IMG/VR virus record: IMGVR_UViG_2767802067_000002
Coordinates: 47,332-111,331 of that record
Reading direction: 5' to 3' (one strand)
DNA length: 64,000 nt
DNA from: a virus
Taxonomy: Duplodnaviria > Caudoviricetes
Shown: piece by piece, positions 10,554 through 47,903 of the stretch
How positions within the stretch are numbered: position 1 is the first letter of the stretch
How the letters are laid out: each line of letters opens with the position of its first letter
Translations under genes and position numbers: made by a program
Notes under the pieces: model-generated
Told to the model about the DNA's origin: nothing
Database searches by the model: none
What the model saw: only the letters and a program-made list of their open reading frames with translations

Positions 10554-11045
10554 TCAGGCGGTGGCGTCGGCGGGCGCGGCCTGGTCGTCGCGGGCGCGGC
10601 CGCAGTTCTCGCAGGTGGCGGTGTGCCACTCGTCGCGCAGGCCGCAGGCGCACTGCCAGGACGCCGTCTCCCAGGCCCAGTGGTTGCCGATCCAGTACCG
10701 GCCGGTGCGGTCCGGGGTGACGATGCGGGTCGCGGCTCGCGGGCTATTGACCGCGCGGTCCCAGGTGATGACCATGACGACGGCCATCGGGACGGACGGG
10801 TCCTCGTCCTCGTCCTCGTCGTCGAAGTCGCGGGGTGCGGGGTCGTTGCCGCTGTCGTCGCCGAGGACGTGGACGGTCACGGTGCCGTCGTGGCCGGCGC
10901 GCTCGGCGAGGGCCTGCGTGGCGGTGGCGAGGGCGCGGGCGTCGGCCAGGGAGAAGGCGTGAGCGCGGTCGGGGGCGTCGAGGTCCACTTCGGCGTTCAC
11001 GACCTGGTCGCCGTCCAGGAGGAGGCGGGTGGGGGTGAGGTGCAT
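10554..11045 (-). CDS. hypothetical protein, paralog of the 9353-10471 domain
   Basis: AFSLADARALA...TVHVL...GRYWIGNHWAW..CACG. Confidence 0.8.
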   Translation of the reverse strand: MHLTPTRLLLDGDQVVNAEVDLDAPDRAHAFSLADARALATATQALAERAGHDGTVTVHVLGDDSGNDPAPRDFDDEDEDEDPSVPMAVVMVITWDRAVNSPRAATRIVTPDRTGRYWIGNHWAWETASWQCACGLRDEWHTATCENCGRARDDQAAPADATA

Positions 11046-11109
11046 GGCGTTCTCCTCTGTCGGGGTCTGCGGTTGCTGGTGGGCTGTGCTGGATGGGGCT
11101 GGCGGTCGG

Positions 11110-11565
11110 TCAGAACAGGGCCGGCTGAGCGAGGGCCGGGGCGGGGGCGGGGCGGCGGATGCGCGGCTTGGCGCCGAGCTCGGGGACCTGCTGGCCGGTC
11201 CGCTCGGTCCACCAGCTCGCGAAGTGCTGGCGGTGGCAGAAGTTGCCGGGCTTGCTCAGAACGTCGAAGCACAGGAGGACGAGCGGGGTGTCTCCGGCGC
11301 CGATCGCGTCGCCGATGGCCTCCAGTTCGGCGCGGACCTTGGCGACGCCGACCTTGTCGAGCTGGTCGCGGTAGCGGAGCTCGTAGGCGTCCTCGGCGAG
11401 GTCCGCGGCGAGGAGCCCCCAGCTCGGGGTGAGGGTGCGGGCGTGCCCGGCGACCGGCTCGAAGAAGGACCGGGCCGCCCCGGCCGTGGTGCGCACGGGG
11501 ACGCCCATCGTGAGCCGGTACTCCTGGTAGGTGCAGGTCGCGAGGTTCAGCTGGCCAGGGAGCAT
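11110..11565 (-). CDS. DUF488-like protein
   Basis: LTPSW...YELRY...LVLLCFD...CHR motif. Confidence 0.7.
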   Translation of the reverse strand: MLPGQLNLATCTYQEYRLTMGVPVRTTAGAARSFFEPVAGHARTLTPSWGLLAADLAEDAYELRYRDQLDKVGVAKVRAELEAIGDAIGAGDTPLVLLCFDVLSKPGNFCHRQHFASWWTERTGQQVPELGAKPRIRRPAPAPALAQPALF

Positions 11566-11605
11566 CGCGCGTCCTTCCTGTCGGGGTCTGTGGTGGTTTG
11601 TGGTG

Positions 11606-11692
11606 CTACCAAGATCATTTCCCGTGGGGCCCTGGCTAACCCATTTGGCCAAATGAATTTGACAAAGAGTTCGCCAGGAACCCGCAGGTCAG
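11606..11692 (-). promoter_or_regulatory. B-type element with CTGACCTGCG motif
   Basis: Boxes at 11636 and 11650; GAAATGAT. Confidence 0.7.
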
Positions 11693-12075
11693 AGGGCTTC
11701 CGGCTCGAACGGGATCAGCGGGAACAGGCCGTCCGTCGCGTACCAGCACCACTCGTGGCCGCCGACCGCGTACCGGCCGTCCGCGTTCGGCCGCAGGATC
11801 TCGGCGGCCTCCTCGGCGCGCTCGCCGCCGAGGTACATCCAGCACACGACCAGCACGACCGCGTGCGCGGTGCCGCTCACGTCGCCGTCCAGCACGTGCA
11901 CCGTGTCCACCGAGCCGTGCCCGTACCGGGCGGCCTCCTCCTGGCTGGCGGCCGCGATCTCGCGCACGGTCTCCAGGTCGAACCAGGGCTTCACGTAGCC
12001 GTCGCGCTGGTCGGCGGGGTCCACCATCGCCGGGTACCGGTCGCGGTCGTTGCAGCACACCAGGGTCTGGATCAT
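11689..12075 (-). CDS. hypothetical protein, single-domain paralog of 9353-10471
   Basis: YPAMVDP...PWFDLETVR...DTVHVLDG...YAVGGHEWCWY. Confidence 0.8.
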   Translation of the reverse strand: MIQTLVCCNDRDRYPAMVDPADQRDGYVKPWFDLETVREIAAASQEEAARYGHGSVDTVHVLDGDVSGTAHAVVLVVCWMYLGGERAEEAAEILRPNADGRYAVGGHEWCWYATDGLFPLIPFEPEAL

Positions 12076-12151
12076 CGGTCTCTCCTCCGGTTATGGGTCC
12101 GGCCGGGTCCGGGGCTCGCGCCCCGGCCCGGCCGGCTGGTCTGGCGGTCGG

Positions 12152-12616
12152 TCAGTCGAGCGGCAGGGTCGCCGCGAGGCCCAGGTCGACCCGGTAGGCG
12201 GGGCGGCCGCCCCGGCTGGGCAGTGCGGTGCACACCGGGCGCCAGGTCGGCGCCGTCGACTCGTCCAGGTACTGCGTCCACTCGGTGACGTCGTGCAGGC
12301 CCACCTCGGCGTCCTCGACACCCGGGGTGGTCGCGAACGTCAGCTCCTCCCAGCCGCCCGTCCAGTAGCGGCCGGTCAGGGACAGCTCGCCGTCCGCGCC
12401 CTGGACCAGCTCGGCGTGCGCGGCGTCGAAGCCGGCGCCGGGCTCGCAGTTCGTCAGGATGTCGCGCACCGCGGCGGCCAGGACGACGAGCATCACGCGG
12501 CCCAGCCGCTGGCGGTCGCCCTGCTCCTCGATGAGAACGGCGTCGACCGCAGCGCCGATCGCCTCGCCGTCGGGCAGGTTGTAGGCGGGGGGCTGGGTGG
12601 GGCTGTGGGCGGGCAT
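12152..12616 (-). CDS. hypothetical protein (154 aa)
   Basis: MPAHSPTQ start with AGGAGG RBS. Confidence 0.75.
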   Translation of the reverse strand: MPAHSPTQPPAYNLPDGEAIGAAVDAVLIEEQGDRQRLGRVMLVVLAAAVRDILTNCEPGAGFDAAHAELVQGADGELSLTGRYWTGGWEELTFATTPGVEDAEVGLHDVTEWTQYLDESTAPTWRPVCTALPSRGGRPAYRVDLGLAATLPLD

Positions 12617-12702
12617 TGGGCCTCCTGTGCGGGGTCGGGTGGGGTGAGGGAAGCCGGCCGGGCCGGGGCGCCGCTTGGGGGTGCCCTGGCCCGGCCTGGC
12701 GG

Positions 12703-13146
12703 TCAGAGATCGAACAGGGTGGGCGGCGCGGCGGGCGCCTGCCGGGGCTGGGCGCCCAGCTCGGGGATCACCTCGCCGGTGACCTCCTCGTACCACCGCG
12801 AAAACTGGTTCCGGTGGCACCAGTTGCCGGGCTTGCTGAGCACGTCGAAGCAGAGCAGGACGAGCGGGGTGTCGCCCGCCCCGCTCCGGCGGGCGATGAA
12901 CTCCAGCTCGGCGCGGATCGCGTCGATGCCGGTCGCGTTGAGCATCCGCCGGTACTGGAGCTCGTAGGCGTCGGCCGGGAGGCCGTTGCGGGCGGCGTCG
13001 ACCAGGTCGCGGCTCGGGGTGATGCTCTGGGCGTGGCCGGCGACCGGCTCGGTGAAGAACCTGGCTCCTCCGACCGTGGTCCGGACCGCCAGGCCCATCG
13101 GGGGCCGGTACTCCTGGTAGGTGCAGGTCGCGAGGTTGAGGATCAT
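12703..13146 (-). CDS. DUF488-like protein, paralog of 11110-11565
   Basis: LNLATCTYQEYR and GDTPLVLLCFDVLSKPGNxCHR shared. Confidence 0.7.
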   Translation of the reverse strand: MILNLATCTYQEYRPPMGLAVRTTVGGARFFTEPVAGHAQSITPSRDLVDAARNGLPADAYELQYRRMLNATGIDAIRAELEFIARRSGAGDTPLVLLCFDVLSKPGNWCHRNQFSRWYEEVTGEVIPELGAQPRQAPAAPPTLFDL

Positions 13147-13220
13147 GCTGGGCGGTTCCTTTCGGTGCTGCTGGTGGTGGGGGGTCATCTTGGGGCCTTT
13201 CGCGGTTCGGGGTGGCGGTG

Positions 13221-13267
13221 TAGTGGGTAGCCACTATGGCCAACGCCTGAGCCGCCCTGTGGTTCCG
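13221..13267 (-). promoter_or_regulatory. A-type promoter/operator (CGGAAC-N16-CGTTGG)
   Basis: TAGTGGGTAGCCACTA at 13221-13236. Confidence 0.8.
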
Positions 13268-13309
13268 GGAGGACCCCGGGGGTTCGCTGCAAAACCGCAG
13301 GTCACCGGC

Positions 13310-14140
13310 TTACGCGGCGATGCCGAACAAGCCGAGCTGGAGCGGCTGGCGCTGGAGCCAGTCGTAGGTGCGGAGCGGGCCGCCCGCGTACCCGGGGATG
13401 AACACCAGGCAGGTCCGGACGTTCGTCCCGCAGACCGCGAAGCTGTCCTCGGGCAGAGCCTCGATCTCGCCGCCGACCTCCTCGACCATCGCGCGGAACT
13501 CGACCGAGGCGCGGTCGCTCCACCACATCAGGCCCTGGGACATCACGGAGACCAGGATCCCGTCGTCCTTCATGAACCCGATCGCGTGCTTGATGTGGTC
13601 CAGGCCCCTGGCGAAGGGCGGGTTCATCACGATCCGGTCGAAGCCCTCCGGGTAGTCCAGTGGGTCCAGGGAGAGGAAGTCGTCGCGGATCACCGCCCGG
13701 CAGTCGCCCTGCCGGCGGAGGACGTCGGCGCGCACGGGGTCGATCTCGACGGCGTCGACCAGGGCGCCGCGCCTGGCGAGCTCGGCGGTCAGGGCGCCCG
13801 ACCCGGCCGAGGGCTCCAGGACGGTCGTCCCGGCGTAGACGCCGGCGAGGTCGCAGATCTGCATGGTCAGGCTCGGCGGGGTCGGGAACCAGCCCTGCTC
13901 GGTGCGGGTGGGGAACTCGCCGGCCGTGAGGCACTGCCGCATGTGCTCCTCGACCCGGTACGGGAAGACGTGGGCTCGGACCGCCGTGCGGCTGTCCCAG
14001 CGGCCGCCCATCTCCTTGAGGACGCGGTCCACCTGCTCGTACACGGGGCGGTCGAGCTCGAAGGGGATGCGCACCCGGTCGTCGCGGATCTCGGTGCGCG
14101 GGTCGGTGAGGACGGCCAGGGCGTCGCTGGGGAATCGCAT
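13310..14140 (-). CDS. SAM-dependent amino (N6-adenine-type) DNA methyltransferase
   Basis: WFPTP, VLEPSAGSG, AVEID, DFL, IVMNPPF; C-terminal QLGLF. Confidence 0.88.
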   Translation of the reverse strand: MRFPSDALAVLTDPRTEIRDDRVRIPFELDRPVYEQVDRVLKEMGGRWDSRTAVRAHVFPYRVEEHMRQCLTAGEFPTRTEQGWFPTPPSLTMQICDLAGVYAGTTVLEPSAGSGALTAELARRGALVDAVEIDPVRADVLRRQGDCRAVIRDDFLSLDPLDYPEGFDRIVMNPPFARGLDHIKHAIGFMKDDGILVSVMSQGLMWWSDRASVEFRAMVEEVGGEIEALPEDSFAVCGTNVRTCLVFIPGYAGGPLRTYDWLQRQPLQLGLFGIAA

Positions 14141-14173
14141 GGGGCTCCGATCTCTCTCGGCTGGGGGTGGGGT

Positions 14174-14206
14174 GGGGCGCACCGCGGTTCGGTCGGGGTG
14201 CGCCCC
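14174..14206 (-). repeat. Intergenic hairpin family H2 (loop ACCGAAC on the minus strand). Copies also at ~14972-15004, 22898-22947, 47022-47060.
   Basis: CGGTTCGGTCGGG core within differing inverted-repeat stems. Confidence 0.75.
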
Positions 14207-14216
14207 TGGGTGGCCT

Positions 14217-14232
14217 TAGTGGCTACCCACTA
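14217..14232. promoter_or_regulatory. Stand-alone A operator (inverted). Others at 15018-15033, 20307-20322, 21722-21737, 22283-22298.
   Basis: TAGTGGCTACCCACTA. Confidence 0.8.
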
Positions 14233-14240
14233 TGTGAGGG

Positions 14241-14858
14241 TCAAGCGGAAATCCGGGTGTAGACGAGCTGCCAGAACTTGTCGACCGGAATGCCGTACTG
14301 GGCGGCCCGGGCGTACCCGAGGGTGATGGTGCCGGGGGCGACCTTGAGCTGCTGGAAGTCGGCCGGGAACTGGGCGTCGACCAGTTCGGCGAGATCGGCG
14401 CCGGCGATGGTGCCGACCTGCTCGGGCTCGACGTGGCGCTCCTTGCGGAACGCCACGGTCTCGATCTTGTAGGTGGCGTCCGTGTCGACGTCCAGAATCG
14501 GGGTGCTGACCTTGGTGTAGATGCGCCGGCGGGTCATCTGGCCGTTCTTCTTGCTGGGCAGCGTCCAGCGCACGGTGATGGTGGAGGAGCCCTCCTCCTG
14601 CTCGATCACGTTGTAGGGGGCCACGAGGCAGGCGTAGAGCTCGGCGCGGAGGTCGGCGCCGGACACGTACTGCTCTCCGCTGGAGTCGCTCTTGCCGTCG
14701 AACCACACCTCGCCCTGGGAGAGGTAGACCGCGGCGGTGTCGATCGCGTAGCTCTCCAGGACGGCTTCGACCATCTCGCGGATGCCGGGGCGGCCGACGG
14801 CCGAGCGGGGGATGGTGTGGCGGATGATGGCGGCCGCGGCGGGAGTGGTGGTGCGCAT
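14241..14858 (-). CDS. hypothetical protein (205 aa)
   Basis: AAGGAG RBS; follows an A-type promoter. Confidence 0.8.
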   Translation of the reverse strand: MRTTTPAAAAIIRHTIPRSAVGRPGIREMVEAVLESYAIDTAAVYLSQGEVWFDGKSDSSGEQYVSGADLRAELYACLVAPYNVIEQEEGSSTITVRWTLPSKKNGQMTRRRIYTKVSTPILDVDTDATYKIETVAFRKERHVEPEQVGTIAGADLAELVDAQFPADFQQLKVAPGTITLGYARAAQYGIPVDKFWQLVYTRISA

Positions 14859-14886
14859 TGGGGCTCCTTGGTGAGGCGGGATGGCT

Positions 14887-14933
14887 TAGTGGGTAGCCAA
14901 TATGACTAACGCTTGAGGGGGCTTGTGGTGCCG
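14887..14933 (-). promoter_or_regulatory. A-type promoter/operator (CGGCAC-N16-CGTTAG)
   Basis: TAGTGGGTAGCCAATA at 14887-14902. Confidence 0.75.
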
Positions 14934-15041
14934 GGTGGATCGCGGTGAATTCGCAGGGGAGGGCGGGTGGTGGGGCGCGCCCCGGTTCGGTCGGGACGCA
15001 CCCCGTGGGGCCACTCATAGTGGCTACCCACTATCAACAGG

Positions 15042-16253
15042 TCAGGCGGCGGCCAGCTCCGGGTTGATCCGGATGATGGAGCCCTCGCGCACCGAGGCGA
15101 TGGCCTCGGCCTTCCGCATGTTGGCCTGCGCCTTGGAGATGACGTCGGCCAGGTGCTTGAGGCGCAGCGAGTAGCCGCCGACTCCGCCGGGGGTGCCGGC
15201 GAGCAGCAGGGCCAGCTCCTCCGGGTCGGCCGCGGCCAGGTCGGCGAGCACCTGGCCCGCGCCGCTCATGCTGTCGACCCGGCCGACGAGCTTCTTGCGC
15301 TCGCCCTGGATGCGCTCGCGCTCGGACTCGGGGAGGTGCGCCGCACCTCCGGGCAGCAGCTCGCCCTGCTGGTCCTTCGTCTGCCGCGGGGCCTCGTCGG
15401 CGAGGACGAAGAAGCTGCCCTGGTCGGCCTGCCGCTTCTCCTCGGAGTGGGCGGCCTGGGCGAACGCCTCGGCGTCGCGGACGGTCTTGAACTCGCCGCG
15501 CGCCCACTTCCCGAGGAACCGCTGCTGGTTGTCGGGGCTGAGCTGCGCGACGTACCAGGAGAGGCCGACCGGCAGGTGGCCCTTGGCGAGGGCGTCCTGC
15601 GCGGCGTCGCTGAGCTTGAGGAGGTCGATCCGCCAGCCCACGTACTGGACGGACTTGCCGACCATCTTCGCGACCTGGGCGGGCTCGTAGCCGTGCTCGT
15701 CCACGAGGCGCTTGAAGGACTTCGCCTCCTCCATCGGGGTCATGTCCGCGCGGGCCGCGTTCTCGGCGACCTGCTCGGCCAAGGTCTTGCCCGCCTCGGC
15801 CTCCCCGCCGCTTCGGACGACGGTCTTCATGTGGGTGAGGCCGGCGAGCTGCGCGGAGTGCCACCGTCGCTCGCCCACCACGATCACGTAGCGCTTGACG
15901 CCGATCTTGCGGACGGTGATCGCCTGGAGCTGGCCGAGCTCCTTCATCGACTCGGCGAGCTCCTGGATCTTGACCGGGTCGAACTCCTCGCGGGGCTGGT
16001 CCGGGTCGGGCTCGATCTGCTCGATCGGGATCAGCTTGTGCGTCTCGCGCACCTCACTGGCGGCCGCTTCGACCTTCTCGGCGGCCACCTCGCGGCGCTT
16101 CTGGACCCGGGTGGGCTCGATCGGCTCGGCGGCCTTCTTCGCGGCGCGCGGCTTGGCGGGGGCCGCCTTCTTCGCGGCCGCCGGCTTGGCGGGCGCGGCG
16201 GCCTTCTTCGCGGCGCGGGGCTTGGCGGCCTTGGTGGCAGGGGTGGCGGTCAT
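15042..16253 (-). CDS. ParB/RepB/Spo0J-family protein (403 aa; shortest in-frame unit of a 1183-aa frame)
   Basis: IEPDPDQPR, GQLQAITVR, IVVGERRW, ENAARADMTPMEEA, HTH; Lys/Ala-rich N-tail; own RBS and B-type promoter. Confidence 0.88.
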   Translation of the reverse strand: MTATPATKAAKPRAAKKAAAPAKPAAAKKAAPAKPRAAKKAAEPIEPTRVQKRREVAAEKVEAAASEVRETHKLIPIEQIEPDPDQPREEFDPVKIQELAESMKELGQLQAITVRKIGVKRYVIVVGERRWHSAQLAGLTHMKTVVRSGGEAEAGKTLAEQVAENAARADMTPMEEAKSFKRLVDEHGYEPAQVAKMVGKSVQYVGWRIDLLKLSDAAQDALAKGHLPVGLSWYVAQLSPDNQQRFLGKWARGEFKTVRDAEAFAQAAHSEEKRQADQGSFFVLADEAPRQTKDQQGELLPGGAAHLPESERERIQGERKKLVGRVDSMSGAGQVLADLAAADPEELALLLAGTPGGVGGYSLRLKHLADVISKAQANMRKAEAIASVREGSIIRINPELAAA

Positions 16254-16928
16254 GGCGCTGGCCTTCTGGGTGGGGTGGTGGGTGGCTACACCATCATCAT
16301 TTCCGGAAGTCGACTTGTCCAAACCAATTTGAGCAAAGTAGTTGCCGCAAATCCGCAGGTCAGAGGCCGCGCCAGCCCCCTGCTCGACCTCGTCGGCGGG
16401 CTCCTCGATCGGCTCGACCAGGGTCGGTTCACCGGCGGGCACGCGGAAGAGCTGGCCGTTCGGCCGGACCGCCCAGTCCTCGCCGTCCGCGAGGCCGAGC
16501 TGCGCCATGTTCACCGGCTTCCCGCAGGCGTCGCAGCCGAAGTCGCCGCGCTCGCGGGCGCGCACCGGGGCGCTCTCGTCGCAGTGCGCACAGACCATCG
16601 GGACCAGGTCGTCGCGGTCCTCGCCGGGTCGTGCGGCCGGGGCCGGCTGGGCGGCGCCCACCGCGACCGCGTAGGCGTTCGCGTAGGGGGCCAGCTTGTT
16701 GCGGGAGTCGTTGCCCCGATAGAGGGAGCGGATCGGGTCCTGCCGGAAGCCCTTCACCCAGACTTCCAGCGGCTCGGGCGCGTAGTGGCCGTCGGTGCCG
16801 CCGAGCTCGTAGGAGACGTGGCCGCTGTACGCGGCGCGCTCGAACTCCTCGGCGCCCATGGCCAGCGGCTTGTTCTCGCCGAGCAGGGCCTGGAACCAAT
16901 CCGCGTAGGGGGTGGTGGCGTTGGGCAT
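15042..16928 (-). CDS. Internal-start form: hypothetical Zn-ribbon domain fused in frame to ParB (628 aa)
   Basis: GAAGGCCAGCGCC-ATG behind a B-type promoter; CAHC...CDAC; no stop before ParB. Confidence 0.6.
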   Translation of the reverse strand: MPNATTPYADWFQALLGENKPLAMGAEEFERAAYSGHVSYELGGTDGHYAPEPLEVWVKGFRQDPIRSLYRGNDSRNKLAPYANAYAVAVGAAQPAPAARPGEDRDDLVPMVCAHCDESAPVRARERGDFGCDACGKPVNMAQLGLADGEDWAVRPNGQLFRVPAGEPTLVEPIEEPADEVEQGAGAASDLRICGNYFAQIGLDKSTSGNDDGVATHHPTQKASAMTATPATKAAKPRAAKKAAAPAKPAAAKKAAPAKPRAAKKAAEPIEPTRVQKRREVAAEKVEAAASEVRETHKLIPIEQIEPDPDQPREEFDPVKIQELAESMKELGQLQAITVRKIGVKRYVIVVGERRWHSAQLAGLTHMKTVVRSGGEAEAGKTLAEQVAENAARADMTPMEEAKSFKRLVDEHGYEPAQVAKMVGKSVQYVGWRIDLLKLSDAAQDALAKGHLPVGLSWYVAQLSPDNQQRFLGKWARGEFKTVRDAEAFAQAAHSEEKRQADQGSFFVLADEAPRQTKDQQGELLPGGAAHLPESERERIQGERKKLVGRVDSMSGAGQVLADLAAADPEELALLLAGTPGGVGGYSLRLKHLADVISKAQANMRKAEAIASVREGSIIRINPELAAA

Positions 16929-18593
16929 GGCGCTGGCCTTCCGGGTGGAGTGGTGATTGGTTACACCTCCATCCTTTCCGGAAGTCGACTTGTCCAAACC
17001 AATTTGAGTAAAGAAGTTACCGCAAATCCGCAGGTCAGAGGCCATCTCCGGCTCCGGCTCGGCCTTCGCGGCGGGCTCCTCCGTGACGGGCTCCGGCTCG
17101 ACCGGCGGGACGTCGGGCGCAGCCGGCTGCCCGGCCGGGACCGGCTCCGGCGCCTGCTGCTCGGCCGCCGCCGGGACCGGCTCGATGGCGCACACGATGC
17201 CCTGGCCCGGCGAGCCCTTCCAGCTTCCCCGGTGCCGGTAGCCGTGCTCGGCCAGCACCGCGGTCACCTGGGCCAGCAGGGCGCTCGACCACACCGACTC
17301 GGTGTACTTCCGTCCCTCCGCCGCCCGGATCGTCACCGGCTCGTGCGCGCCGTGCGGCTTGCCCACCCCGTTCAGCCAGGACAGCGCCGCCTCCGTGGCG
17401 TCCCACCGGCACTCGACCTTCACCCGCTTTGGCACCTTCGGGTCGGCCCGCTTCTTCGGCGCCTTCGGCTTCGCCGCTGCGGCCTCGCGCAGGGCGCTCG
17501 CCGGGTGCGCCGCCGACGCCTCCCGGGCCGTCTTGAGGCCGGGGACCTTCCCGTCCGCCATGTAGGCGTCCATCGTCGCCTCCGGGCACCGGCCCTTGAC
17601 CTTCGTGTAGTCCGCCGTGTGCGTGCCGACCAGGCCGTCCTGCGTGGCGTCCGCCACGGTCAGCACGTTGCCGGACAGTCGCAGGTTCCACGCGATCGAC
17701 AGCGACTTTGCGTTCACCCGGGCCACCTGGTGCCAGGTGCCGATGTAGCAGACGTAGTCGCCCGGCACGAAGTCCTCCGGGCGCCAGATCTTGGCGCCGG
17801 CGGCCTCGGCGTCGGCGACGACCCGCCGCCAGTAGCCGAGCTCGTCGGCCAGGTCCAGCAGGTCCAGGTCGTTCGCCGCGAGGACGTCGACCAGCACCTC
17901 GGGCCCGATCTTCCCCGCGATGGCGCTCTTCACTGCCTTGCTCTGCTGGCGGTGCAGCCCGCGCTCCTCGGCCTCCAGCTTGGCGATCCGGCGCAGGGTG
18001 ACGCCCGGGTCCTTGCGGTGCTGCTCGTAGTGCTCGGCGGACACCGCGCGGTCCGCCCAGTGCCGGAAGCGGTCGGCCGCCTCGATCGACTTCCGCATGT
18101 GCGAGTCGATCCGCTCGGCGTCCTTCTCGGCGCGGCGCTGGCTGTGGTGGCCGACGAGGATCGGCTGCCCGAAGGGGATGTGGCGCACGATGTCCCCGGC
18201 CGCCTTGTGGCGGGCGTCGGACTCGGCGGCGGCCCGGCCCGCGTAGCCCTCGAAGCGCTCGGCGCGGTCCTCGGCCCGCTCGGTGCGGTCGTCCTCGGCC
18301 TCGGCGAAGGACCGGCGCACGTACTCGTCGACCTCCACCGTCACCGGGTAGCCGGCGGCCTCCAGGGCCCGCTGGATCTCGTTGATCTTCCAGCTGGCCC
18401 GCTTGTCGCGCGAGTTCCGCAGGTACAGGCCGACCGTCCTGGACGAGCGGACGCCGAGCGGGTGGACGATCTCCCAGACGCCGTCGCCCGGGCTGGAGCC
18501 GTCCAGCAGGGTGCCCGCCTCGCGGGTGTGCGTGATCGTGATGTGCGGCTTCGGCCGGGCGCTGTCGGCCGGGGTCTTCTCGGTGCTCTCCAT
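15042..18593 (-). CDS. DUF3560-domain protein reading in frame through to ParB (1183 aa)
   Basis: MESTEK start with GAGGAAG RBS; ERAEDRAERF...IPFGQPILVGHHS is the DUF3560 signature; no stop codon until 15042. Confidence 0.7.
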   Translation of the reverse strand: MESTEKTPADSARPKPHITITHTREAGTLLDGSSPGDGVWEIVHPLGVRSSRTVGLYLRNSRDKRASWKINEIQRALEAAGYPVTVEVDEYVRRSFAEAEDDRTERAEDRAERFEGYAGRAAAESDARHKAAGDIVRHIPFGQPILVGHHSQRRAEKDAERIDSHMRKSIEAADRFRHWADRAVSAEHYEQHRKDPGVTLRRIAKLEAEERGLHRQQSKAVKSAIAGKIGPEVLVDVLAANDLDLLDLADELGYWRRVVADAEAAGAKIWRPEDFVPGDYVCYIGTWHQVARVNAKSLSIAWNLRLSGNVLTVADATQDGLVGTHTADYTKVKGRCPEATMDAYMADGKVPGLKTAREASAAHPASALREAAAAKPKAPKKRADPKVPKRVKVECRWDATEAALSWLNGVGKPHGAHEPVTIRAAEGRKYTESVWSSALLAQVTAVLAEHGYRHRGSWKGSPGQGIVCAIEPVPAAAEQQAPEPVPAGQPAAPDVPPVEPEPVTEEPAAKAEPEPEMASDLRICGNFFTQIGLDKSTSGKDGGVTNHHSTRKASAMPNATTPYADWFQALLGENKPLAMGAEEFERAAYSGHVSYELGGTDGHYAPEPLEVWVKGFRQDPIRSLYRGNDSRNKLAPYANAYAVAVGAAQPAPAARPGEDRDDLVPMVCAHCDESAPVRARERGDFGCDACGKPVNMAQLGLADGEDWAVRPNGQLFRVPAGEPTLVEPIEEPADEVEQGAGAASDLRICGNYFAQIGLDKSTSGNDDGVATHHPTQKASAMTATPATKAAKPRAAKKAAAPAKPAAAKKAAPAKPRAAKKAAEPIEPTRVQKRREVAAEKVEAAASEVRETHKLIPIEQIEPDPDQPREEFDPVKIQELAESMKELGQLQAITVRKIGVKRYVIVVGERRWHSAQLAGLTHMKTVVRSGGEAEAGKTLAEQVAENAARADMTPMEEAKSFKRLVDEHGYEPAQVAKMVGKSVQYVGWRIDLLKLSDAAQDALAKGHLPVGLSWYVAQLSPDNQQRFLGKWARGEFKTVRDAEAFAQAAHSEEKRQADQGSFFVLADEAPRQTKDQQGELLPGGAAHLPESERERIQGERKKLVGRVDSMSGAGQVLADLAAADPEELALLLAGTPGGVGGYSLRLKHLADVISKAQANMRKAEAIASVREGSIIRINPELAAA
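16254..16368 (-). repeat. B-type element embedded in coding frame; near-identical copy at 16929-17043
   Basis: Shared TTTCCGGAAGTCGACTTGTCCAAACCAATTTGAG..CGCAAATCCGCAGGTCAGAGGCC. Confidence 0.9.
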
Positions 18594-18658
18594 CGTCTTC
18601 CTCTCGCTCGTGGCATGGGGCGGCCCGGCCCCCGGGCTGGGGCCGGGCCGGTGGCCGG

Positions 18659-19042
18659 TCAGAACAGCGGGTCCTGCCCGTCGGACGGGGCCGGGCCGGA
18701 GGGGGCCGCGTCGAGCCGGGCCCGGTCGAGCTGGGCGCGCATCTCGCGGATCGCCGCGGCGACCCGCTCGCCGAAGGCCGCCAGGTCCTCGCCCTCCTCC
18801 GGGCGCATGTCCCGGCTGGTGCTGAGGTTGCCCTTGGCGACGGTCACCCCGATCAGGTCCTCGTCGAGGGCGTCGTCGTAGATGCCCGCGAAGATGACCT
18901 CCAGGACGCCGTCCTCGATGACCTCGCGGTGTCCGAGCTCTCGGCCCGTCCAGCTGGGGCCGAGGAGGCGGGCGACGTAGGGGGCCAGGTCGCACAGGTA
19001 GAAGGTGGTCGCGGCCGGGTCGGGCGTGGCGGTGGCGGTCAT
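18659..19042 (-). CDS. hypothetical protein (127 aa)
   Basis: GAAAGG RBS; ends QDPLF. Confidence 0.75.
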   Translation of the reverse strand: MTATATPDPAATTFYLCDLAPYVARLLGPSWTGRELGHREVIEDGVLEVIFAGIYDDALDEDLIGVTVAKGNLSTSRDMRPEEGEDLAAFGERVAAAIREMRAQLDRARLDAAPSGPAPSDGQDPLF

Positions 19043-19106
19043 GGCGGGGCCTTTCTGGGCTAGTGGGCAGGGGCCCGGCCCCCGAGGTGGGGGCCGGGCG
19101 GGCCGA

Positions 19107-19544
19107 TCAGAGCTCGATCGGGGCGTCGATCCAGGTCGCGCTGGTCGTGGGGGTCAGGCCGAGCGCGTCGGTCGCGACCCGGAGGCGGGCGTCCCACGCG
19201 GGGTCGACGGCCGGCTCGTCGTCGTCCATCTCGATCTGGCTGGCGACCAGGAAGTAGCCGGTGCCCAGGCCCGGGATCTCCATGAACCCGACCTGGACGC
19301 CGACCCGGGCGTCCGCCTCGCGCACGCGGGCCCAGTAGCCGGCCCAGTCGCCCGTCACCTCGGGCATGGCCTCGGTGAAGCTGGCGAGGCGGGCGCGGAG
19401 GGCAGCCTGCATGGCGTCCACCAGGTCCTCCTCCTCGTACCAGTCGGTGGCCAGGTCGCCGCTCTCGGTGGTCTCGGCGGCCTTCCAAGCTCCGGGGCCG
19501 CCGAGGTAGATCGCGTAGCTCTTGGTCTCGGTCGCGTAGCGCAT
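19107..19544 (-). CDS. hypothetical protein (145 aa)
   Basis: MRYATETK start with AAGGAG RBS, after a B-type element. Confidence 0.75.
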   Translation of the reverse strand: MRYATETKSYAIYLGGPGAWKAAETTESGDLATDWYEEEDLVDAMQAALRARLASFTEAMPEVTGDWAGYWARVREADARVGVQVGFMEIPGLGTGYFLVASQIEMDDDEPAVDPAWDARLRVATDALGLTPTTSATWIDAPIEL

Positions 19545-19581
19545 GGGGGCTCCTTGGCTCTTGGGGTGGTGGCTTGTTGTC

Positions 19582-19658
19582 CTACTTTCATCATTTCCGG
19601 AAATCCATTTGGCCAAACCAGTTTTACAAAATGGATTTCCGGAGTTTTCGCAGGTCAG
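19582..19658 (-). promoter_or_regulatory. B-type element
   Basis: Boxes at 19600, 19614, 19628; GAAATGAT; CTGACCTGCG. Confidence 0.75.
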
Positions 19659-20284
19659 GCCGCCTGTCCGGGCTCCTCCGGTGCGGTCAGCCAGTCTGCG
19701 ATGTACTCGACGCAGGCGGGCACCCCGGTCTCGATCGGGGTGGACAGGGCCAGGCGCTCCGCGTGGTCGCGGCCGACGGCCAGGACGAACCACTCGCTCC
19801 CGCCCAGCTCCGCGAGCGGCATGTCCACGCAGGTGTCCGGCAGGTCCCAGCCCTCGGCCGCCGAGGTGTCCACGTAGATCACCGCGTAGCTCCCACCCGG
19901 CCCGTCGACCTCCAGCCAGCTGTTGCCGACGTCCTCGCCGTGCTGGGCCGTGATCCCGTACTCGGCGAGGGCCAGGCGCATCACGTCCGCCGGGGTCCGC
20001 AGCATCGCCCGGTCGGCCGCGAACTCGGCGCGGGCCTGGCCGGCCGCGGCGTCCGCGCTCACGGCCGCGTACTCCAAGACCTGGAGGTTGCCCTGCTCGG
20101 TCACCGCCTGGTCGAGCAGTTCCTGCTTGCGCTCGGCGCGGGTGGCCGGGTCGGCCGGGGCGGCCTCGACGTGGAGCACGTCGCGCTCCGGCTCCCGGAG
20201 CCCGAGCCAGAAGTCCGGGTGGGTCGGCTCCTCGTCGTTCACCACGAGGAGGAACGTGCAGGGGGCCTTGGTCATCTCGCGCAT
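19655..20284 (-). CDS. hypothetical protein (209 aa)
   Basis: GAGAGG RBS; A operator upstream. Confidence 0.75.
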   Translation of the reverse strand: MREMTKAPCTFLLVVNDEEPTHPDFWLGLREPERDVLHVEAAPADPATRAERKQELLDQAVTEQGNLQVLEYAAVSADAAAGQARAEFAADRAMLRTPADVMRLALAEYGITAQHGEDVGNSWLEVDGPGGSYAVIYVDTSAAEGWDLPDTCVDMPLAELGGSEWFVLAVGRDHAERLALSTPIETGVPACVEYIADWLTAPEEPGQAA

Positions 20285-20391
20285 GGGGTGCGCCTCTCTC
20301 TGGGCTTAGTGGGTAGGCACTACGTCCGCCGCGTGGCTGGACGCAGGGAATCGCGGCCCGGGCCGGTCGCCCGGGCCGCCGGTGCTGCGCC

Positions 20392-20856
20392 CTACTCGGC
20401 GGGGCGCTCGCAGTCGTCGTGCCGGTCGCACCGGCAGGACCCGCAGCCGACGCACATCTCGATCGCCTGGGTGTCGCAGGCGGGGCACCCGCCGGTGGCC
20501 TCGGTCTCGGCCTCGTCCTCGGCGAGCAGGCGGTCGATCTCCGCCTCGCGCGCGGCGGCCCTCTCGCGGACCACCTCGTCCTGGGCCTCCAGCGCGGCCT
20601 TCGTCCAGGTCTCGATCAGCATCTTCCCGGCCGCGGCGGCGGCGTCGCCGGGGGTGAGGCCGTCGGCCAGGCCGCGGGTGTACACCGCCGCGATGGCGGC
20701 CACCGAGTGGTCGTTGGTGAAGTGCTCGGTCAGCATCTCCCGCGACAGGTTCGGGTTCAGCTCGTTCAGCCACTTCGCGGTCCAGCCGGCGATGCGGCCC
20801 ACGGCGTCGCCGAGCTGGGCGGGGTCGGTGGGGAAGGCGATGGTGCTCGCGGTCAT
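20392..20856 (-). CDS. hypothetical protein with Cys-rich C-terminus
   Basis: CPAC...CVGCGSCRCDRHDDC. Confidence 0.75.
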   Translation of the reverse strand: MTASTIAFPTDPAQLGDAVGRIAGWTAKWLNELNPNLSREMLTEHFTNDHSVAAIAAVYTRGLADGLTPGDAAAAAGKMLIETWTKAALEAQDEVVRERAAAREAEIDRLLAEDEAETEATGGCPACDTQAIEMCVGCGSCRCDRHDDCERPAE

Positions 20857-20922
20857 GGTGCGCGTCCTCTCTGGGTGGGGCCGGCCGGGCGGGCGCCCGG
20901 CCGGTCGGGGTGCGGGCTCGGG

Positions 20923-21192
20923 TCAGAGCACGCGGGTGGCGGCCATCGCGGCCTCGACGATCTGGATGGTCTGGCCCCAGGCGGCCGGGACGTCCAGGAA
21001 CTCGGTGTTGCCCCAGGCCGCGCAGTAGGTGATCCGGGCCCGGCCGGGCTGGTCGCCGGCGGGCAGCTCGATCGTCCAGTCGTAGCCCTCGTGGCTGACC
21101 ACGGTGCGCGGCCCGAGGTTCGTCCGGATCCAGTAGGTGGAGCTCGCGGCGGCGGCGAACACGGCGGTGGCGGTCTCGGCGGTGACGGTCAT
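20923..21192 (-). CDS. hypothetical protein (89 aa)
   Basis: Follows an A-type promoter; paralog of 21289-21663. Confidence 0.75.
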   Translation of the reverse strand: MTVTAETATAVFAAAASSTYWIRTNLGPRTVVSHEGYDWTIELPAGDQPGRARITYCAAWGNTEFLDVPAAWGQTIQIVEAAMAATRVL

Positions 21193-21218
21193 GGCGCTGG
21201 CCTCTCGGACTTGGGGCT

Positions 21219-21265
21219 TAGTGGGTAGGCACTATGTTCAACGCGGAACCCGCCCTGGAGTACCG
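21219..21265 (-). promoter_or_regulatory. A-type promoter/operator (CGGTAC-N16-CGTTGA)
   Basis: Near-identical to the 7007 copy. Confidence 0.8.
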
Positions 21266-21288
21266 GGGTGACGCGAAGAAATCGCAGG

Positions 21289-21663
21289 TCAGGCCATGTT
21301 TTCGGCGACCAGCCCGGCGCGCCGCTGGCCGGGCAGCAGGCCGCGCGCGGAGGCGGGCCGCTCGCCGGCGGCCAGGCTCGCGACGATCGCTGCCGCCTGC
21401 TCCCCGGTGGCCCGGACGTCGACGGGCTCGCAGCCGCCGAGTCCCTGCCGGTGGGTGATGCGGGCCTGGGCCGGGATCGCGCGGCCCTTGCGGTCGGTGC
21501 CCGCCGGGACCAGGGCGACCGTCCAGCCGTAGCCGTCGCGGCCGACGATGGCTTCCAGGCCGCCGTCGACCGGGCGCCAGGTGCCGCGCGCGGCGGCCGC
21601 GGCGAGGACTGCGGCGGCGGTGGCGATGTCGACCCGGGTGCGGCGGGGGGTGGGGATGCGCAT
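21289..21663 (-). CDS. hypothetical protein (124 aa), paralog of 20923-21192
   Basis: AVxAAAA...GYxWT...ARIT...DVxA shared. Confidence 0.7.
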   Translation of the reverse strand: MRIPTPRRTRVDIATAAAVLAAAAARGTWRPVDGGLEAIVGRDGYGWTVALVPAGTDRKGRAIPAQARITHRQGLGGCEPVDVRATGEQAAAIVASLAAGERPASARGLLPGQRRAGLVAENMA

Positions 21664-21755
21664 GGTGCTGTCCTCTCGGCTGGAACGGGGCCGGCCGGGC
21701 ATGATGCCCGGCCGGAGCCTTTCGTGGCTACCCACTACGCGGTGGGCGCGCAGAA

Positions 21756-22124
21756 TCAGTCGGCGTCGATCTCGAAGTTCTCCGTGGCGACCAGGAAGCG
21801 GCGCTGCCCTTCCAGCTCGGCCAGGGACGCCGCGGTGACCACCAGGCTGGTGCTGGAGGAGAACCCGCAGCCGATCACGGCCTCCGTGGCCTCCTGGCGC
21901 GTCTTTGCCAGGGCCTCGCGGATGCCCATGCGCTCGGCCCGCTTGCTGAGCTTGATCCACGGCTTGGCCTTCGCCTCGGCGGCCAGCACCTCGTCCATCA
22001 GGCCGGGCAGGAAGGCGCCGGGCGCGGCCAGCGCGGTGGTCAGGCGGGCGCGGGCGTCGGCCGCGGCGGTGAAGGCGCGAGCGCCGAGGGTGGCGATGCG
22101 GTCGGTGGCGGTGGTGACGTTCAC
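21756..22124 (-). CDS. hypothetical helical protein (122 aa)
   Basis: GTG with AAGGAG RBS after a B-type element. Confidence 0.75.
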   Translation of the reverse strand: MNVTTATDRIATLGARAFTAAADARARLTTALAAPGAFLPGLMDEVLAAEAKAKPWIKLSKRAERMGIREALAKTRQEATEAVIGCGFSSSTSLVVTAASLAELEGQRRFLVATENFEIDAD

Positions 22125-22161
22125 GGCTGACTCCTTGGTCGGTGCTTGGTGGCTTGTTGTT

Positions 22162-22238
22162 CTACTTTCATCATCCCCGGTGACCCATTTGACCAAACCA
22201 GTTTTACCAAATGAGTTTCACGTATTTTCGCAGGTCAG
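22162..22238 (-). promoter_or_regulatory. B-type element
   Basis: Boxes at 22180, 22194, 22208; closely resembles the 19582 copy. Confidence 0.75.
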
Positions 22239-22308
22239 CGACGCTGCGCCCGGTCGCGCCGCCCCGCGTCGGCCCCTGCGCATAGTGGGTGCCCACTATG
22301 CTGGCCGC

Positions 22309-22578
22309 ATGGCCTCCACCCCCCTGCCCGAGCCGTTCGCCGCCCTCGCCGAGCTCATCGCCGGCGGCCCCACGATGCACACCGCCGCCCAGCTCGGCGA
22401 AGCCCTCAACGCCGTTCCGCAGCTCCAGCGCTGGCTGCGCGAGCAGCGACAGGACGTCTTCCAGGCGCTCAAGACCACCCACTCCAACGGTGAGATCGCC
22501 ACGCACCTCGGCCTCACCACGCAGCGGGTCGCGGACATCGCCTCCGGGCACTCCCACACCAAGGCGCCGAAGCGCTGA
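22309..22578 (+). CDS. small HTH regulator (89 aa), probably leaderless
   Basis: SNGEIATHLGLTTQRVADIASG HTH; TATGCT -10 (22297-22302) lies 6 nt before ATG and overlaps an A operator. Confidence 0.8.
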   Translation: MASTPLPEPFAALAELIAGGPTMHTAAQLGEALNAVPQLQRWLREQRQDVFQALKTTHSNGEIATHLGLTTQRVADIASGHSHTKAPKR

Positions 22579-22629
22579 CCGCTGCGCGCCGCACCGGCCC
22601 AGGCCCGGACGCTTCGTAGGCTCGGGCCC

Positions 22630-22884
22630 ATGAAGGACACGACCGCATTCGTCCTGGCCTGTGGGATCGCCGGCGCGTCCGGCGTCCTCTGGAAACTGAT
22701 CATCACCTGGGGCCAGGTCCGCATCACCCGGGTGGAGACCGACAACATCCACGCCCGCGCGGACCTCGCGCGGGCCGACCGGCCGGCCCCGCCGGTACCT
22801 GGCCGCTACGCCCCGCCGCAGAGCGGCGGCGACCTCGAGTCCGGTCCGCTCTCCAACGTCCGCATCACCCGCCCCGGGGACTGA
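22630..22884 (+). CDS. small membrane-anchored protein (84 aa)
   Basis: N-terminal hydrophobic helix; TAGGCT -10 just upstream of ATG. Confidence 0.65.
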   Translation: MKDTTAFVLACGIAGASGVLWKLIITWGQVRITRVETDNIHARADLARADRPAPPVPGRYAPPQSGGDLESGPLSNVRITRPGD

Positions 22885-22964
22885 CCCCGGCACGGAGAAG
22901 CGCCCGCCTCCGCCCCCGGTTCGGTCGGGGTGGTGGCGGGCGCTTCGCTGTCGCCGGCGGCCGG

Positions 22965-23405
22965 TCAGATCAGGGCGGCCACGGCGGCCCGGAGGGCGGC
23001 GACGTCCTCGTACACGATCTCGACGCAGCCGAGGCGGCCGTCCTCGCGGCCCTCCTCGTAGCGGTACAGCTCGGCGGTGATGACGAGGCGGCCGTCGACG
23101 CCCTCGGCGCGGGCGGTGGTGCGCGGCTCGCCGCCCTCGGCGATCCAGCGCGGGTAGCCGGGGTGGCCGAGGATCTGGTCCAGCATGGCGATGAACGCCT
23201 CGGGCGTGCCGGGGACCTGCGTCCTCTCGGCGTCGACGATCACCCAGGAGGCGTCCAGCTCCTCGGGGGTGGCCACGCCCTCCTCGAAGCGCTCGCGGCT
23301 GGTCGCCGCGTTGTAGACCGTCGCGTAGAGGTACGCGGACTCGCCGCGCATCTCGATGTTCCACCAGGGGGTCATCGCGGGGGTGGGGTCCAGGCAGGCG
23401 CCCAT
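22965..23405 (-). CDS. hypothetical protein (146 aa)
   Basis: AAGGAG RBS. Confidence 0.75.
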   Translation of the reverse strand: MGACLDPTPAMTPWWNIEMRGESAYLYATVYNAATSRERFEEGVATPEELDASWVIVDAERTQVPGTPEAFIAMLDQILGHPGYPRWIAEGGEPRTTARAEGVDGRLVITAELYRYEEGREDGRLGCVEIVYEDVAALRAAVAALI

Positions 23406-47063: not shown

Positions 47064-47903
47064 TCACGGGGTGGCGGGCTGGACGAGGAAGACGCGGTCG
47101 TGGCTGATCCAGACCTCGTCGCCCGGGCCGGGGCGCAGGCTGCCCGCGCTACCGGTGGTGCAGCGGACCTTCACCCGGTCCTTGCCGAGCTTGATGACGG
47201 GGCCGAGGATCGTGGCCTGGTAGCGGCCGGACGTGGTCCCGCCGACGGTGTCGCCCTCGTATCCGGTGCGGCCCGCGGCGTCCCGGAAGGACGGCCGGGG
47301 CGCGGGCTCCGAGGTGACGGGGAGCCGGTGCATGTGTTCCTTGCAGTCGGCGCAGCGGCGGCTCTGCCAGCGCTGCCCGTCTTCCTCGTACTCGGAGGTG
47401 ATCTCCCACGACTCGTGGGGGCACGGGAGCTCCGCGCCGATCTCCTTGGCGTACTGGGCGAGGAGGGCGGCGGCCCACTCGCGGGCGTCCTCCGGGTGCG
47501 CGCCGGTCTCCTCGTAGAGGTCGACGAGGCGCTGCACCGCGGTACGGTCCGCGGCCTGCTCCTCGGGGTCCTCGTAGTGCGCCTCGACGGGCCGCCACGC
47601 GGTGACGACGATCGGGACCTCCTCGACCTCGACGGCGGTGACGGTGTCGCCGGTCCAGCCGTGGTTCTCCGGTGCGCCGCCGCCGACCTCGAAGTCCCCG
47701 AGGTCCAGCTCGGCCTCGTAGGTGACGGTGTAGGTCCGGTTGTCGCCGTCGGCGTCGCGGAACACCACGGCGCGCTCCTGGCTGTACTTGAGCGTGTAGA
47801 GCTTCTGGTCGTCGAGGATGACGTCGCCGTCGATGTCGTCCGGGCTGCCGGGCGGGACGCCGAGGGCGCCGAGCTCGGCGTGGGTGAACTCTCGGGTGAT
47901 CAC
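47064..47903 (-). CDS. hypothetical multi-domain protein (279 aa)
   Basis: GTGA coupling; GAGGA RBS. Confidence 0.72.
   Translation of the reverse strand: MITREFTHAELGALGVPPGSPDDIDGDVILDDQKLYTLKYSQERAVVFRDADGDNRTYTVTYEAELDLGDFEVGGGAPENHGWTGDTVTAVEVEEVPIVVTAWRPVEAHYEDPEEQAADRTAVQRLVDLYEETGAHPEDAREWAAALLAQYAKEIGAELPCPHESWEITSEYEEDGQRWQSRRCADCKEHMHRLPVTSEPAPRPSFRDAAGRTGYEGDTVGGTTSGRYQATILGPVIKLGKDRVKVRCTTGSAGSLRPGPGDEVWISHDRVFLVQPATP

Follow-up and report, generated by a model that had tools for sequence, protein, structure and literature searches.

Regulatory-type cassettes read in frame as linkers of a DUF3560-ParB gene in a temperate actinophage early region: a candidate nested gene for three ParB isoforms

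The stretch of DNA considered here, hereafter the window, comprises 64,000 nucleotides (nt) of the viral record IMGVR_UViG_2767802067_000002 (positions 47,332 to 111,331) and corresponds to G000:C11:229640-293639 of an 8.78-Mb, 253-contig actinomycete draft genome, the closest relatives of which at the locus under study are Kitasatospora strains. It carries a gene in which a DUF3560 module, a helical/zinc-ribbon-like module and a ParB protein follow one another in a single minus-strand frame, without any stop from the ATG at 18593 to the TGA at 15042 (1183 codons, predicted 127.8 kDa). The modules are joined by two translated cassettes belonging to a family otherwise found between genes of the same phage. 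We consider it fairly likely that this is a conserved nested gene of the temperate actinophage early region, encoding predicted isoforms of 128, 67.5 and 43.5 kDa that share a ParB C-terminus. An earlier reading made from the sequence alone (the sequence-only reading) had proposed that the DUF3560 gene lacks a stop codon of its own and that its frame ends only after ParB, which is what we find. The features are as follows, coordinates being those of the window.

15042..18593, minus strand: whole nested open reading frame (ORF), 1183 amino acids (aa) plus TGA; defined by the open frame, the frame profile of G+C at third codon positions (GC3) and the full-length relatives P0002 and P0003
17043..18593, minus strand: unit 1, residues 1-517, DUF3560 module without its own stop codon; PF12083, AlphaFold model, 129 orthologue clusters
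16929..17042, minus strand: cassette 1 (B-type), residues 518-555; nhmmer 100 bits, alignment, GC3 dip
16368..16928, minus strand: unit 2, residues 556-742, start M556, helical/zinc-ribbon-like module without its own stop codon; database matches and a model
16254..16367, minus strand: cassette 2 (B-type), residues 743-780; nhmmer 105 bits, 103 of 114 bases as in cassette 1, same layout
15042..16253, minus strand: unit 3, ParB, 403 aa from M781; Pfam, PHROG ParB-like families, starts of stand-alone ParBs
16293..16321, minus strand: sigma-70-like hexamer pair TGGACA-17-GATGAT inside cassette 2; consensus match only
19548..19660, minus strand: nearest upstream intergenic B cassette; nhmmer 98 bits, the TGA of its edge motif being the stop of the gene ending at 19655

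A single frame read through two cassettes

Along the ORF, the DUF3560 module is followed by a 114-nt cassette, the 187-aa helical/zinc-ribbon-like module, a second 114-nt cassette and ParB, and Pfam places DUF3560 at residues 103-219, ParB_N at 853-934 and HTH_ParB at 950-1047. Two internal ATGs, at 16928 (M556) and 16253 (M781), are confirmed to lie in frame and would yield proteins of 628 aa (predicted 67.5 kDa) and 403 aa (predicted 43.5 kDa), so that the frame indeed predicts the three products with a common ParB C-terminus (1183, 628 and 403 aa) of the sequence-only reading. Long open frames mean little by themselves in DNA of 72% GC, as a frame of 1242 codons is also open on the opposite, plus strand (15153-18881), which results from the GC-rich codon pattern and does not represent a gene. 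The case for a nested gene thus rests on GC3 and on relatives. Computed over 60-nt segments in the frame of the ORF, GC3 is 0.9-1.0 up to each cassette, 0.4-0.65 within the cassettes, and 0.95-1.0 from the ATGs at 16928 and 16253 onward; GC content is 0.72 for the whole ORF, 0.54 for cassette 1 (17042-16929) and 0.56 for cassette 2 (16367-16254). As GC3 keeps the coding frame right up to each cassette, no frameshift is hidden near the junctions.

The cassettes, first described as two near-identical translated elements of about 115 bp, turn out to be 114 nt long each. Both are read as ASDLRICGN(F/Y)F(T/A)QIGLDKSTSG...KASA, followed by the Met of the next unit. Cassette 1 consists of the motif CTGACCTGCG with its TGA out of frame, the conserved core TGGTTTGGAC...TTCCGGAAAGGATG, and GGAAGG ahead of the ATG at 16928; it is free of stops in the frame of the ORF, while the other two frames contain them. 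In cassette 2, AGAAGG precedes the ATG at 16253. A single frame without internal stop, with in-frame internal starts preceded by ribosome-binding sites (RBS), is the arrangement found in nested isoform genes.

Members of the same B-type family, detected with a repeat finder, by alignment and with nhmmer, also precede the genes at 19649, 22229, 11683, 28884 and 31030. The copies have in common the motif CTGACCTGCG, a core TGGTTTGG(A/C)C...TTCCGGAAATGATG, a C/A-rich leader, and a GGAG-like site followed by the start codon. Another family, the A-type, is characterised by CGGAAC...CGTT and a TAGTG-N6-CACTA palindrome. The reverse complement of the motif, CGCAGGTCAG, occurs 26 times with at most one mismatch, versus 10.9 occurrences expected. 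At 11689, 19655 and 21289 the TGA of CTGACCTGCG terminates a gene, but it is out of frame in both in-ORF copies (16354-16363 and 17029-17038), as these are read TCT GAC CTG CGG; on this point too the initial observation is borne out.

The motif forms the 5' edge of A-type and B-type cassettes all over the window (e.g., at 11683, 16354, 17029, 19649, 21283, 22229, 25139 and 32182), and is retained even where its TGA is not used as a stop. Its phase with respect to the cassette core varies, all three being represented (*PA, LTC, DLR), which suggests a separate role at the level of DNA or RNA, possibly as a boundary for recombination or as an upstream element.

Conservation of the open frame in relatives

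Residues 500-800 were searched against a collection of 5.8 billion proteins, retaining long proteins only. Two full-length relatives were recovered: P0002 (1232 aa, Kitasatospora sp.) and P0003 (1189 aa, K. aureofaciens), which are respectively 73% and 76% identical to the ORF overall. P0002 has both linkers in frame. P0003 has kept linker 1 and is devoid of linker 2: its zinc-ribbon unit leads directly into the Lys/Ala-rich tail of ParB, through a junction with normal GC3 and no start codon. More distant loci (~50% identity) were obtained by scanning genome and viral contigs with the three-sequence alignment. In six of them (L024, L025, L026, L029, L030 and L028, the last being identical in sequence to L082), unit 1 and ParB share one stop-to-stop frame of 917-1270 codons. 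Conservation of the open frame in relatives, suggested as a check along with the sequence-only reading, is thus observed at two close (73-76%) and six distant loci, which are open throughout. Conversely, stops at the junctions of relatives, which would have spoken against that reading, are absent from the close relatives but present in L027, in L070-L072 and in 25 clusters of stand-alone proteins. In L027, unit 1 ends at its own stop, namely the TGA of CTGACCTGCG; in L070, L071 and L072, unit 1 and ParB are separate genes, and the stop of unit 1 in L071 is a TAG located just before the motif. As some distant relatives have such stops, the fusion appears to be favoured, not obligatory.

The cassettes read through at these loci are of several kinds. 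Those of L024, L026, L029 and L030 are A-type (...TASDL(R/Q)..PVPQG.SEVSHSVHPL..SERP.TM), L025 carries two cassettes of an A-variant (..LTCEN...TRNH...VVHSDSPL..), and L028 has yet another kind. Their positions vary as well: in L026 a cassette precedes the helical middle module and none precedes ParB, while L029 shows the reverse arrangement. All of the 12 in-ORF cassettes for which the DNA sequence is available end in a start codon (ATG in 10 cases, GTG in two) behind a purine-rich site. In addition, modules may be fused directly, without cassette or start codon, as seen between zinc-ribbon and ParB (P0003, L022), between helical module and ParB (L026), and between unit 1 and helical module (L029). 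As these junctions have neither a cassette nor a start codon, the downstream part can be made there only as a fusion. Finally, insertions and deletions in the hypervariable Pro/Glu-rich tails are all multiples of three, though a shift would just reach the TGA of the motif.

Near-identical DNA was not found in the phage collection, where tblastn returned distant ParB matches only. When the whole protein was compared with 167 genomes genus-wide, only separate DUF3560 matches (38-48% identity) and chromosomal-type ParBs were obtained, and no ParB lay within 1.5 kb of these DUF3560 loci. Codon-position substitution counts among the window, L021 and L022 were uninformative, as positions 1, 2 and 3 differ about equally, even in folded domains (GC3 being extreme).

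Frequency and history of the fusion

Searches with unit 1 for longer and similar-length proteins, followed by extraction of full-length orthologues, yielded 129 clusters (including the window), which fall into four classes.

Unit 1 leading into ParB: 60 clusters
Unit 1 leading into a different region of ~400 aa: 28 clusters
Unit 1 with an extension of ~150 aa, often a CPMC...CAHC ribbon: 16 clusters
Unit 1 stand-alone: 25 clusters

With nine linker peptides as phmmer seeds, cassette-like linker peptides were detected in 56 of the 59 database ParB fusions (one in 42 of them, two in 14), and in none of the other three classes. Many of these linkers are of the A-variant type, ALTC(D/E)(F/N)SGNTRNH....S.YPL....QE.PAM, in which TRNH spells CGGAAC and QE spells a GGAGG site. 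NCBI names the fusions either 'ParB/RepB/Spo0J family partition protein' or 'DUF3560 domain-containing protein'.

In a FastTree tree of unit 1, the ParB-fused state is present in both halves and requires at least 10 changes, and the stand-alone state at least six. As the fused state is spread over the tree, the fusion appears to be common and repeatedly lost; judging from this distribution, it is probably old.

Two groups of proteins are worth mentioning beside the ParB fusions. In a unit-1 clade including P0071, P0165, P0092 and 25 others (~890-970 aa), the same Pro/Glu-rich tail leads into a conserved ~400-aa region without ParB (LRLQREQA..LGWS..., ending ..PEQLDLFA), DUF3560 being the only Pfam family on record. 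P0126-P0147 (Streptomyces, 1234-2455 aa) are longer DUF3560 proteins, some of which include a C5 DNA methylase or DUF6197; no cassette-like linker peptide was found in them with the seeds used, and they may represent further read-through or polyvalent architectures.

Working fusion or tolerated read-through

The explanation that best survives beside a working fusion, although we deem it rather unlikely, is that the locus consists of three functionally separate genes, each provided with a promoter, an RBS and a start, the first two of which have lost their stops as the cassette TGA falls out of phase and the cassette is open by chance; the long products would then be made as neutral by-products. 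Such an origin would account for each unit starting with an RBS and an ATG right after a cassette, for units 1, 2 and 3 all occurring as separate proteins elsewhere, and for the interchange of fused and split states on the tree. It is also in keeping with the share of intergenic cassettes (~46%) that are open in this frame. Nhmmer models were built for the A and B families, and every copy with E < 1e-8 in the window and in nine loci was classified according to the flanking frames as defined by GC3. All 11 cassettes located in a DUF3560..ParB interval are in frame and stop-free, while none of the 29 cassettes between other same-strand genes joins its neighbours (Fisher's exact test, 4e-10; the copies are related by descent and hence not independent). 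The GC3 rule itself called 10 copies fused, all of them in the DUF3560..ParB interval; the eleventh (L025 3526-3635) was misjudged by the rule, and lies in the same ORF.

Openness was also evaluated in a fixed canonical frame, defined as the codon phase of the in-ORF copies across the core (GGA AAT GAT in B-type, CAT AGT G.. in A-type). This frame is free of stops in 24 (~46%) of the 52 intergenic copies, versus all 11 in-ORF copies. In A-type cassettes, the palindrome puts a TAG and a TAA in two frames, so that only one frame can be open, which is the one used. What distinguishes the locus is the combination of an upstream gene in phase, a motif TGA out of phase, no other stop, and a start codon in phase. 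The chance of obtaining this is ~0.04-0.13 per junction, a value hard to reconcile with 11 of 11 at the locus, 0 of 29 elsewhere and 60 of 129 clusters fused. A mere loss of stops would not account either for cassettes of different families being in frame at the same locus. Since cassette-free fusions without internal start exist, cassettes are found only in ParB fusions, and the Pro/Glu-tail indels are all multiples of three, a working fusion is favoured over a tolerated one. The other possibility raised at the outset, a chance fusion brought about by cassette insertion, has to be abandoned in view of the open relatives, the other cassette families and the contrast between 11 of 11 and 0 of 29.

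Cassettes as candidate internal promoters

The in-ORF cassettes may be regarded as candidate internal promoters, given their membership of the intergenic-cassette family and one sigma-70-like match. The latter, TGGACA-17-GATGAT, is the sole site returned by a sigma-70-type consensus scan of 14800-22400, in which shuffled sequences give 0.1. Alternatively, the in-ORF copies may not be active promoters at all but in-frame insertions of a recombinogenic junction element, serving as linkers only, such that only the full-length protein matters. We regard this as improbable. RNA folding is on its side: the in-ORF cassettes fold no better than shuffled sequences (z -1.5 and -1.05), versus z -2.3 for the intergenic copy at 19600-19650, the 15-bp inverted repeat of which is degenerate in the ORF. 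However, the cassette model scores the in-ORF copies at least as high as the intergenic ones. Those of the window score highest of all (105 and 100 bits), but both were seeds of the B model; the in-ORF B copies of relatives, which were not, score 87-89 bits versus 36-86 bits for the intergenic copies of the same relatives. Moreover, an RBS and an ATG or GTG are kept in 12 of 12 cases, and the Met following the cassette is the true start of stand-alone ParB (see below). Finally, unit-1 fusions to partners other than ParB have no cassettes, as expected if the cassette is kept for making ParB alone.

In the intergenic B cassette at 19600-19650 (minus strand), the inverted repeat is a perfect one (CCGGAAATCCATTT...AAATGGATTTCCGG) and spans the -35/spacer region. 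In the in-ORF copies (16290-16350 and 16965-17025) it is mostly lost, and a short AAGTCGACTT palindrome is kept. The two kinds of copy may have different operators, or else a translated region may not tolerate a strong hairpin. No Rfam family was found at E up to 0.1 in 11000-23000.

It is next to impossible that three ordinary genes were joined through assembly or sequencing indels near 16365 and 17040, in spite of the genome being a 253-contig draft and of the motif TGA being only one or two bases out of phase, as GC3 shows no change of frame before either cassette, independent genomes have the same in-frame junctions, and an NCBI assembly and a separately assembled Logan run agree fully on the P0003 gene. 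We also considered a programmed frameshift to the motif TGA, or non-stop decay via transfer-messenger RNA, as ways of ending unit 1; nothing supports either, and both are unnecessary because relatives have direct fusions.

The three modules

Unit 1 matches PF12083 (DUF3560) with 110.6 bits (gathering threshold 27.2). Its AlphaFold model (predicted local distance difference test score, pLDDT, 88) comprises N- and C-terminal alpha/beta domains, a long four-helix bundle (DUF3560), a small beta-barrel, a helical part and the Pro/Glu-rich tail. Foldseek found no match of this model in the PDB at E up to 0.001, and a wide VIA-align search returned generic long-helix/coiled-coil matches only (Z up to 10.9, residues 95-267), from which no function was inferred. 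DUF3560 is mentioned only incidentally in the literature searched. The domain is reportedly common in plasmid leading regions. The same genome contains, on another contig (G000:C110:7673-8695), a further and distant DUF3560 gene with 37% identity to unit 1 and an open frame of 508 aa.

No cassette lies upstream of unit 1, which is preceded by a GC-rich hairpin and an RBS after the stop (...CTGACC) of the gene at 18659-19042. The hairpin corresponds to an inverted repeat at 18600-18665, GGGGCGGCCCGGCCCC..GGGGCCGGGCCG, without a T run, between that stop (GTTCTGACC) and the start of unit 1.

Unit 2 is composite (model pLDDT 85). A ~90-aa helical domain (YADWFQALL...GGTDGHYAPEP...LAPYANAY) is followed by a CxxC...CxxC zinc-ribbon-like module. 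In a search of representatives, the helical domain was found elsewhere as the C-terminal domain of many proteins of 90-230 aa, and the CxxC...CxxC part matches the small stand-alone proteins P0050 and P0053. No significant match was obtained when the model was searched against structures, the best being a TFIIB zinc ribbon (E 0.96). The first 90 residues of unit 2 (16660-16928) share with P0004-P0030 a conserved helical domain of ~85 aa (W..F..LL...FE..AY.G..SYE.GGTDG.Y.PEP.E.WV..FR..P...LY.GND.R..LAP), which has no Pfam or PHROG family and is usually C-terminal in small actinobacterial or phage proteins.

Unit 3 is a member of the ParB/Spo0J family, as indicated by PF02195 (78.0 bits, cut-off 26.3), PF17762 (54.3 bits, cut-off 22.6) and PHROG ParB-like families (down to 3e-34). 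A Lys/Ala/Pro-rich tail precedes the ParB_N CTPase fold, the HTH domain and a family-specific C-terminal domain ending ...NPELAAA. The GxxRxxA (GERRxRA) nucleotide-binding motif is present as VVGERRWHSAQLAG, and 22 relatives show no variation at residues G127, E128, R129, R130 and W131 of the ParB unit. Where ParB stands alone, in L070-L072, it begins MTAT(T/P)... after GAGAGGACAGGCG, at the residue equivalent to M781 (MTATPATKAAK...), by which comparison the internal start M781 is predicted to be the native ParB start. Small ORFs and DNA methylases make up the neighbouring minus-strand genes, an array of the early prophage type, and the gene tables of L021 and L022 are alike.

Proposed expression of the nested gene

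Under the reading that we favour, the linkers would serve both as flexible protein spacers and, at the DNA level, as promoter/operator/RBS cassettes like those between the other genes of the phage. As unit 1 has no cassette of its own, it should be transcribed from the B cassette at 19548-19660: the upstream transcript would run through the genes at 19544-19107 and 19042-18659 and give the 1183-aa fusion, while transcripts starting in cassette 1 would give the 628-aa form from M556, and those starting in cassette 2 the 403-aa form from M781. Read-through products would contain linker peptides such as ICGNYFAQIGLDK, ICGNFFTQIGLDK and STSGNDDGVATHHPTQK. Because ParB proteins dimerise, the isoforms, should all three accumulate, would be expected to co-assemble; and as each further promoter along the locus would add to the output downstream of it, chains with ParB alone should be more abundant than the long forms. 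The most economical model would be that ParB assembles on phage DNA as a mixture, with the DUF3560 and zinc-ribbon modules borne by only a few of the subunits. That cassettes are confined to ParB fusions is expected if ParB alone is also needed.

A more far-reaching version, which we put forward as possible but somewhat doubtful, would have the cassettes be swappable, frame-compatible 'regulatory linkers' kept readable by selection, giving an excess of ParB scaffold from the internal promoters, together with sub-stoichiometric subunits to which DUF3560 and accessory modules are covalently attached and which travel with ParB assemblies along incoming or replicating phage DNA. Exchange between A, B and other cassettes would then retune the ratio and timing of the isoforms while leaving the domains untouched.

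Several observations weigh against these proposals. Differential timing is not evident, as the three putative promoters concerned in the window are all of one type. The fused state is not obligatory, given the 25 stand-alone clusters, the stops in L027 and L070-L072 and the 10 or more state changes on the tree. Since orthologous cassettes go back to common ancestors, the counts are higher than the number of independent events, which we put at about five or more (the two B cassettes, an A cassette ahead of ParB, another ahead of the middle module, the two A-variant cassettes and the kind seen in L028). In addition, with close to half of the intergenic copies free of stops in the frame in question, some of the openness comes at no cost. 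Regarding cargo transport more specifically, no Pfam match to ParA/CbiA was found in the ten neighbouring minus-strand genes, nor any in the gene tables of L021 and L022, and the canonical parS (TGTTTCACGTGAAACA) has no match with up to three mismatches in the window, although a family-specific site is possible. As DUF3560 and unit 2 have no assigned function, and neither ParA nor canonical parS is found nearby, 'cargo on DNA' is to be taken as a model and not as a finding. Hence, of the regulated ParB isoforms carrying cargo along DNA imagined in the sequence-only reading, comparative data support the conserved fusion, while cargo transport and the activity of the internal promoters are still conjectural.

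Comparison with known systems

Should the more far-reaching version hold, regulatory linkers would be a bacterial counterpart of isoform control by alternative promoters, based on dual-coding DNA. In at least 56 Streptomycetaceae prophage protein clusters, what looks like a regulatory unit (upstream motif, -35/-10 elements or elements resembling those of extracytoplasmic function sigma factors, operator palindrome, RBS and start codon) is the translated linker. It would be a natural case of dual-coding DNA in which both codes are separable, since a stop codon could be introduced that leaves the promoter intact, and the promoter could be inactivated by changes that do not close the frame. Furthermore, annotation of ORFs of 900-1230 aa as plain ParB partition proteins hides the DUF3560 module and the predicted isoforms. 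The fusion ties the uncharacterised DUF3560, common in phage early regions, to an orphan ParB, and may provide a handle on the function of both.

Prophages are enriched for fused proteins with a ParB-CTPase fold (Kaljevic et al. 2025, PMC12704722). As it has an intact GERRW and HTH, and neither a ParA neighbour nor a canonical parS, the ParB of the window belongs with the orphan prophage ParBs of that study, with which it shares the ParB_N plus HTH layout, the prophage context, the lack of a ParA neighbour and the fusion to a domain of unknown function. DUF3560/PF12083 is absent from the text and the supplements checked of that article, which does not treat internal promoters or isoforms.

The polyvalent proteins of phages and conjugative elements (Iyer et al. 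2017, PMC5512222) are multi-domain proteins with variable module order, in which ParB-superfamily domains are common. The resemblance lies in modules that also occur alone and in variable order, and in the existence of Streptomyces DUF3560 proteins reaching 2455 aa, some of which include a C5 methylase. However, the ParB domains of polyvalent proteins are DdrB-like, occur in a late-gene/virion context and are thought to be injected (PMC5512222), whereas ours is a canonical HTH ParB in an early-gene array, next to small early-type ORFs and methylases. Pfam detects neither an MPTase nor a helicase on the ORF, which lacks the polyvalent signature (DdrB-like ParB, MPTase or SNF2 helicase-methylase domains in a late-gene, virion or T4SS setting), and PMC5512222 makes no mention of DUF3560, linkers or internal promoters.

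Parallels are also provided by nested genes. Promoters inside genes and in-frame isoforms are both already known, and pairs of in-frame isoforms with internal starts, forming mixed oligomers, are exemplified by T7 gp4A/4B, ClpB 93/79, IF2 alpha/beta and CheA L/S. These share with the gene described here long and short forms from one frame and mixed oligomers (proposed in our case), but they use an internal ribosome-binding site on one mRNA, with no promoter encoded in a linker. The repressor gene c of Streptomyces phage phiC31 reportedly gives rise to three in-frame, N-terminally different proteins from nested promoters, and in the transposase/inhibitor system of Tn5 the inhibitor transcript starts from a promoter inside tnp. 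With both, the present gene has in common one frame, internal promoters (putative here), in-frame starts, a shared C-terminus and expected co-assembly. Unlike in phiC31 c and Tn5, however, the putative internal promoters are portable cassettes of 114-140 nt, of the intergenic promoter/operator/RBS kind; their positions coincide exactly with domain boundaries, they are translated as linkers, and they have been swapped between families with the frame kept; and the predicted isoforms differ by whole folded modules, not by short N-terminal segments. The new element would thus be a complete, portable regulatory cassette that doubles as an inter-domain linker and is exchanged between families with the frame preserved.

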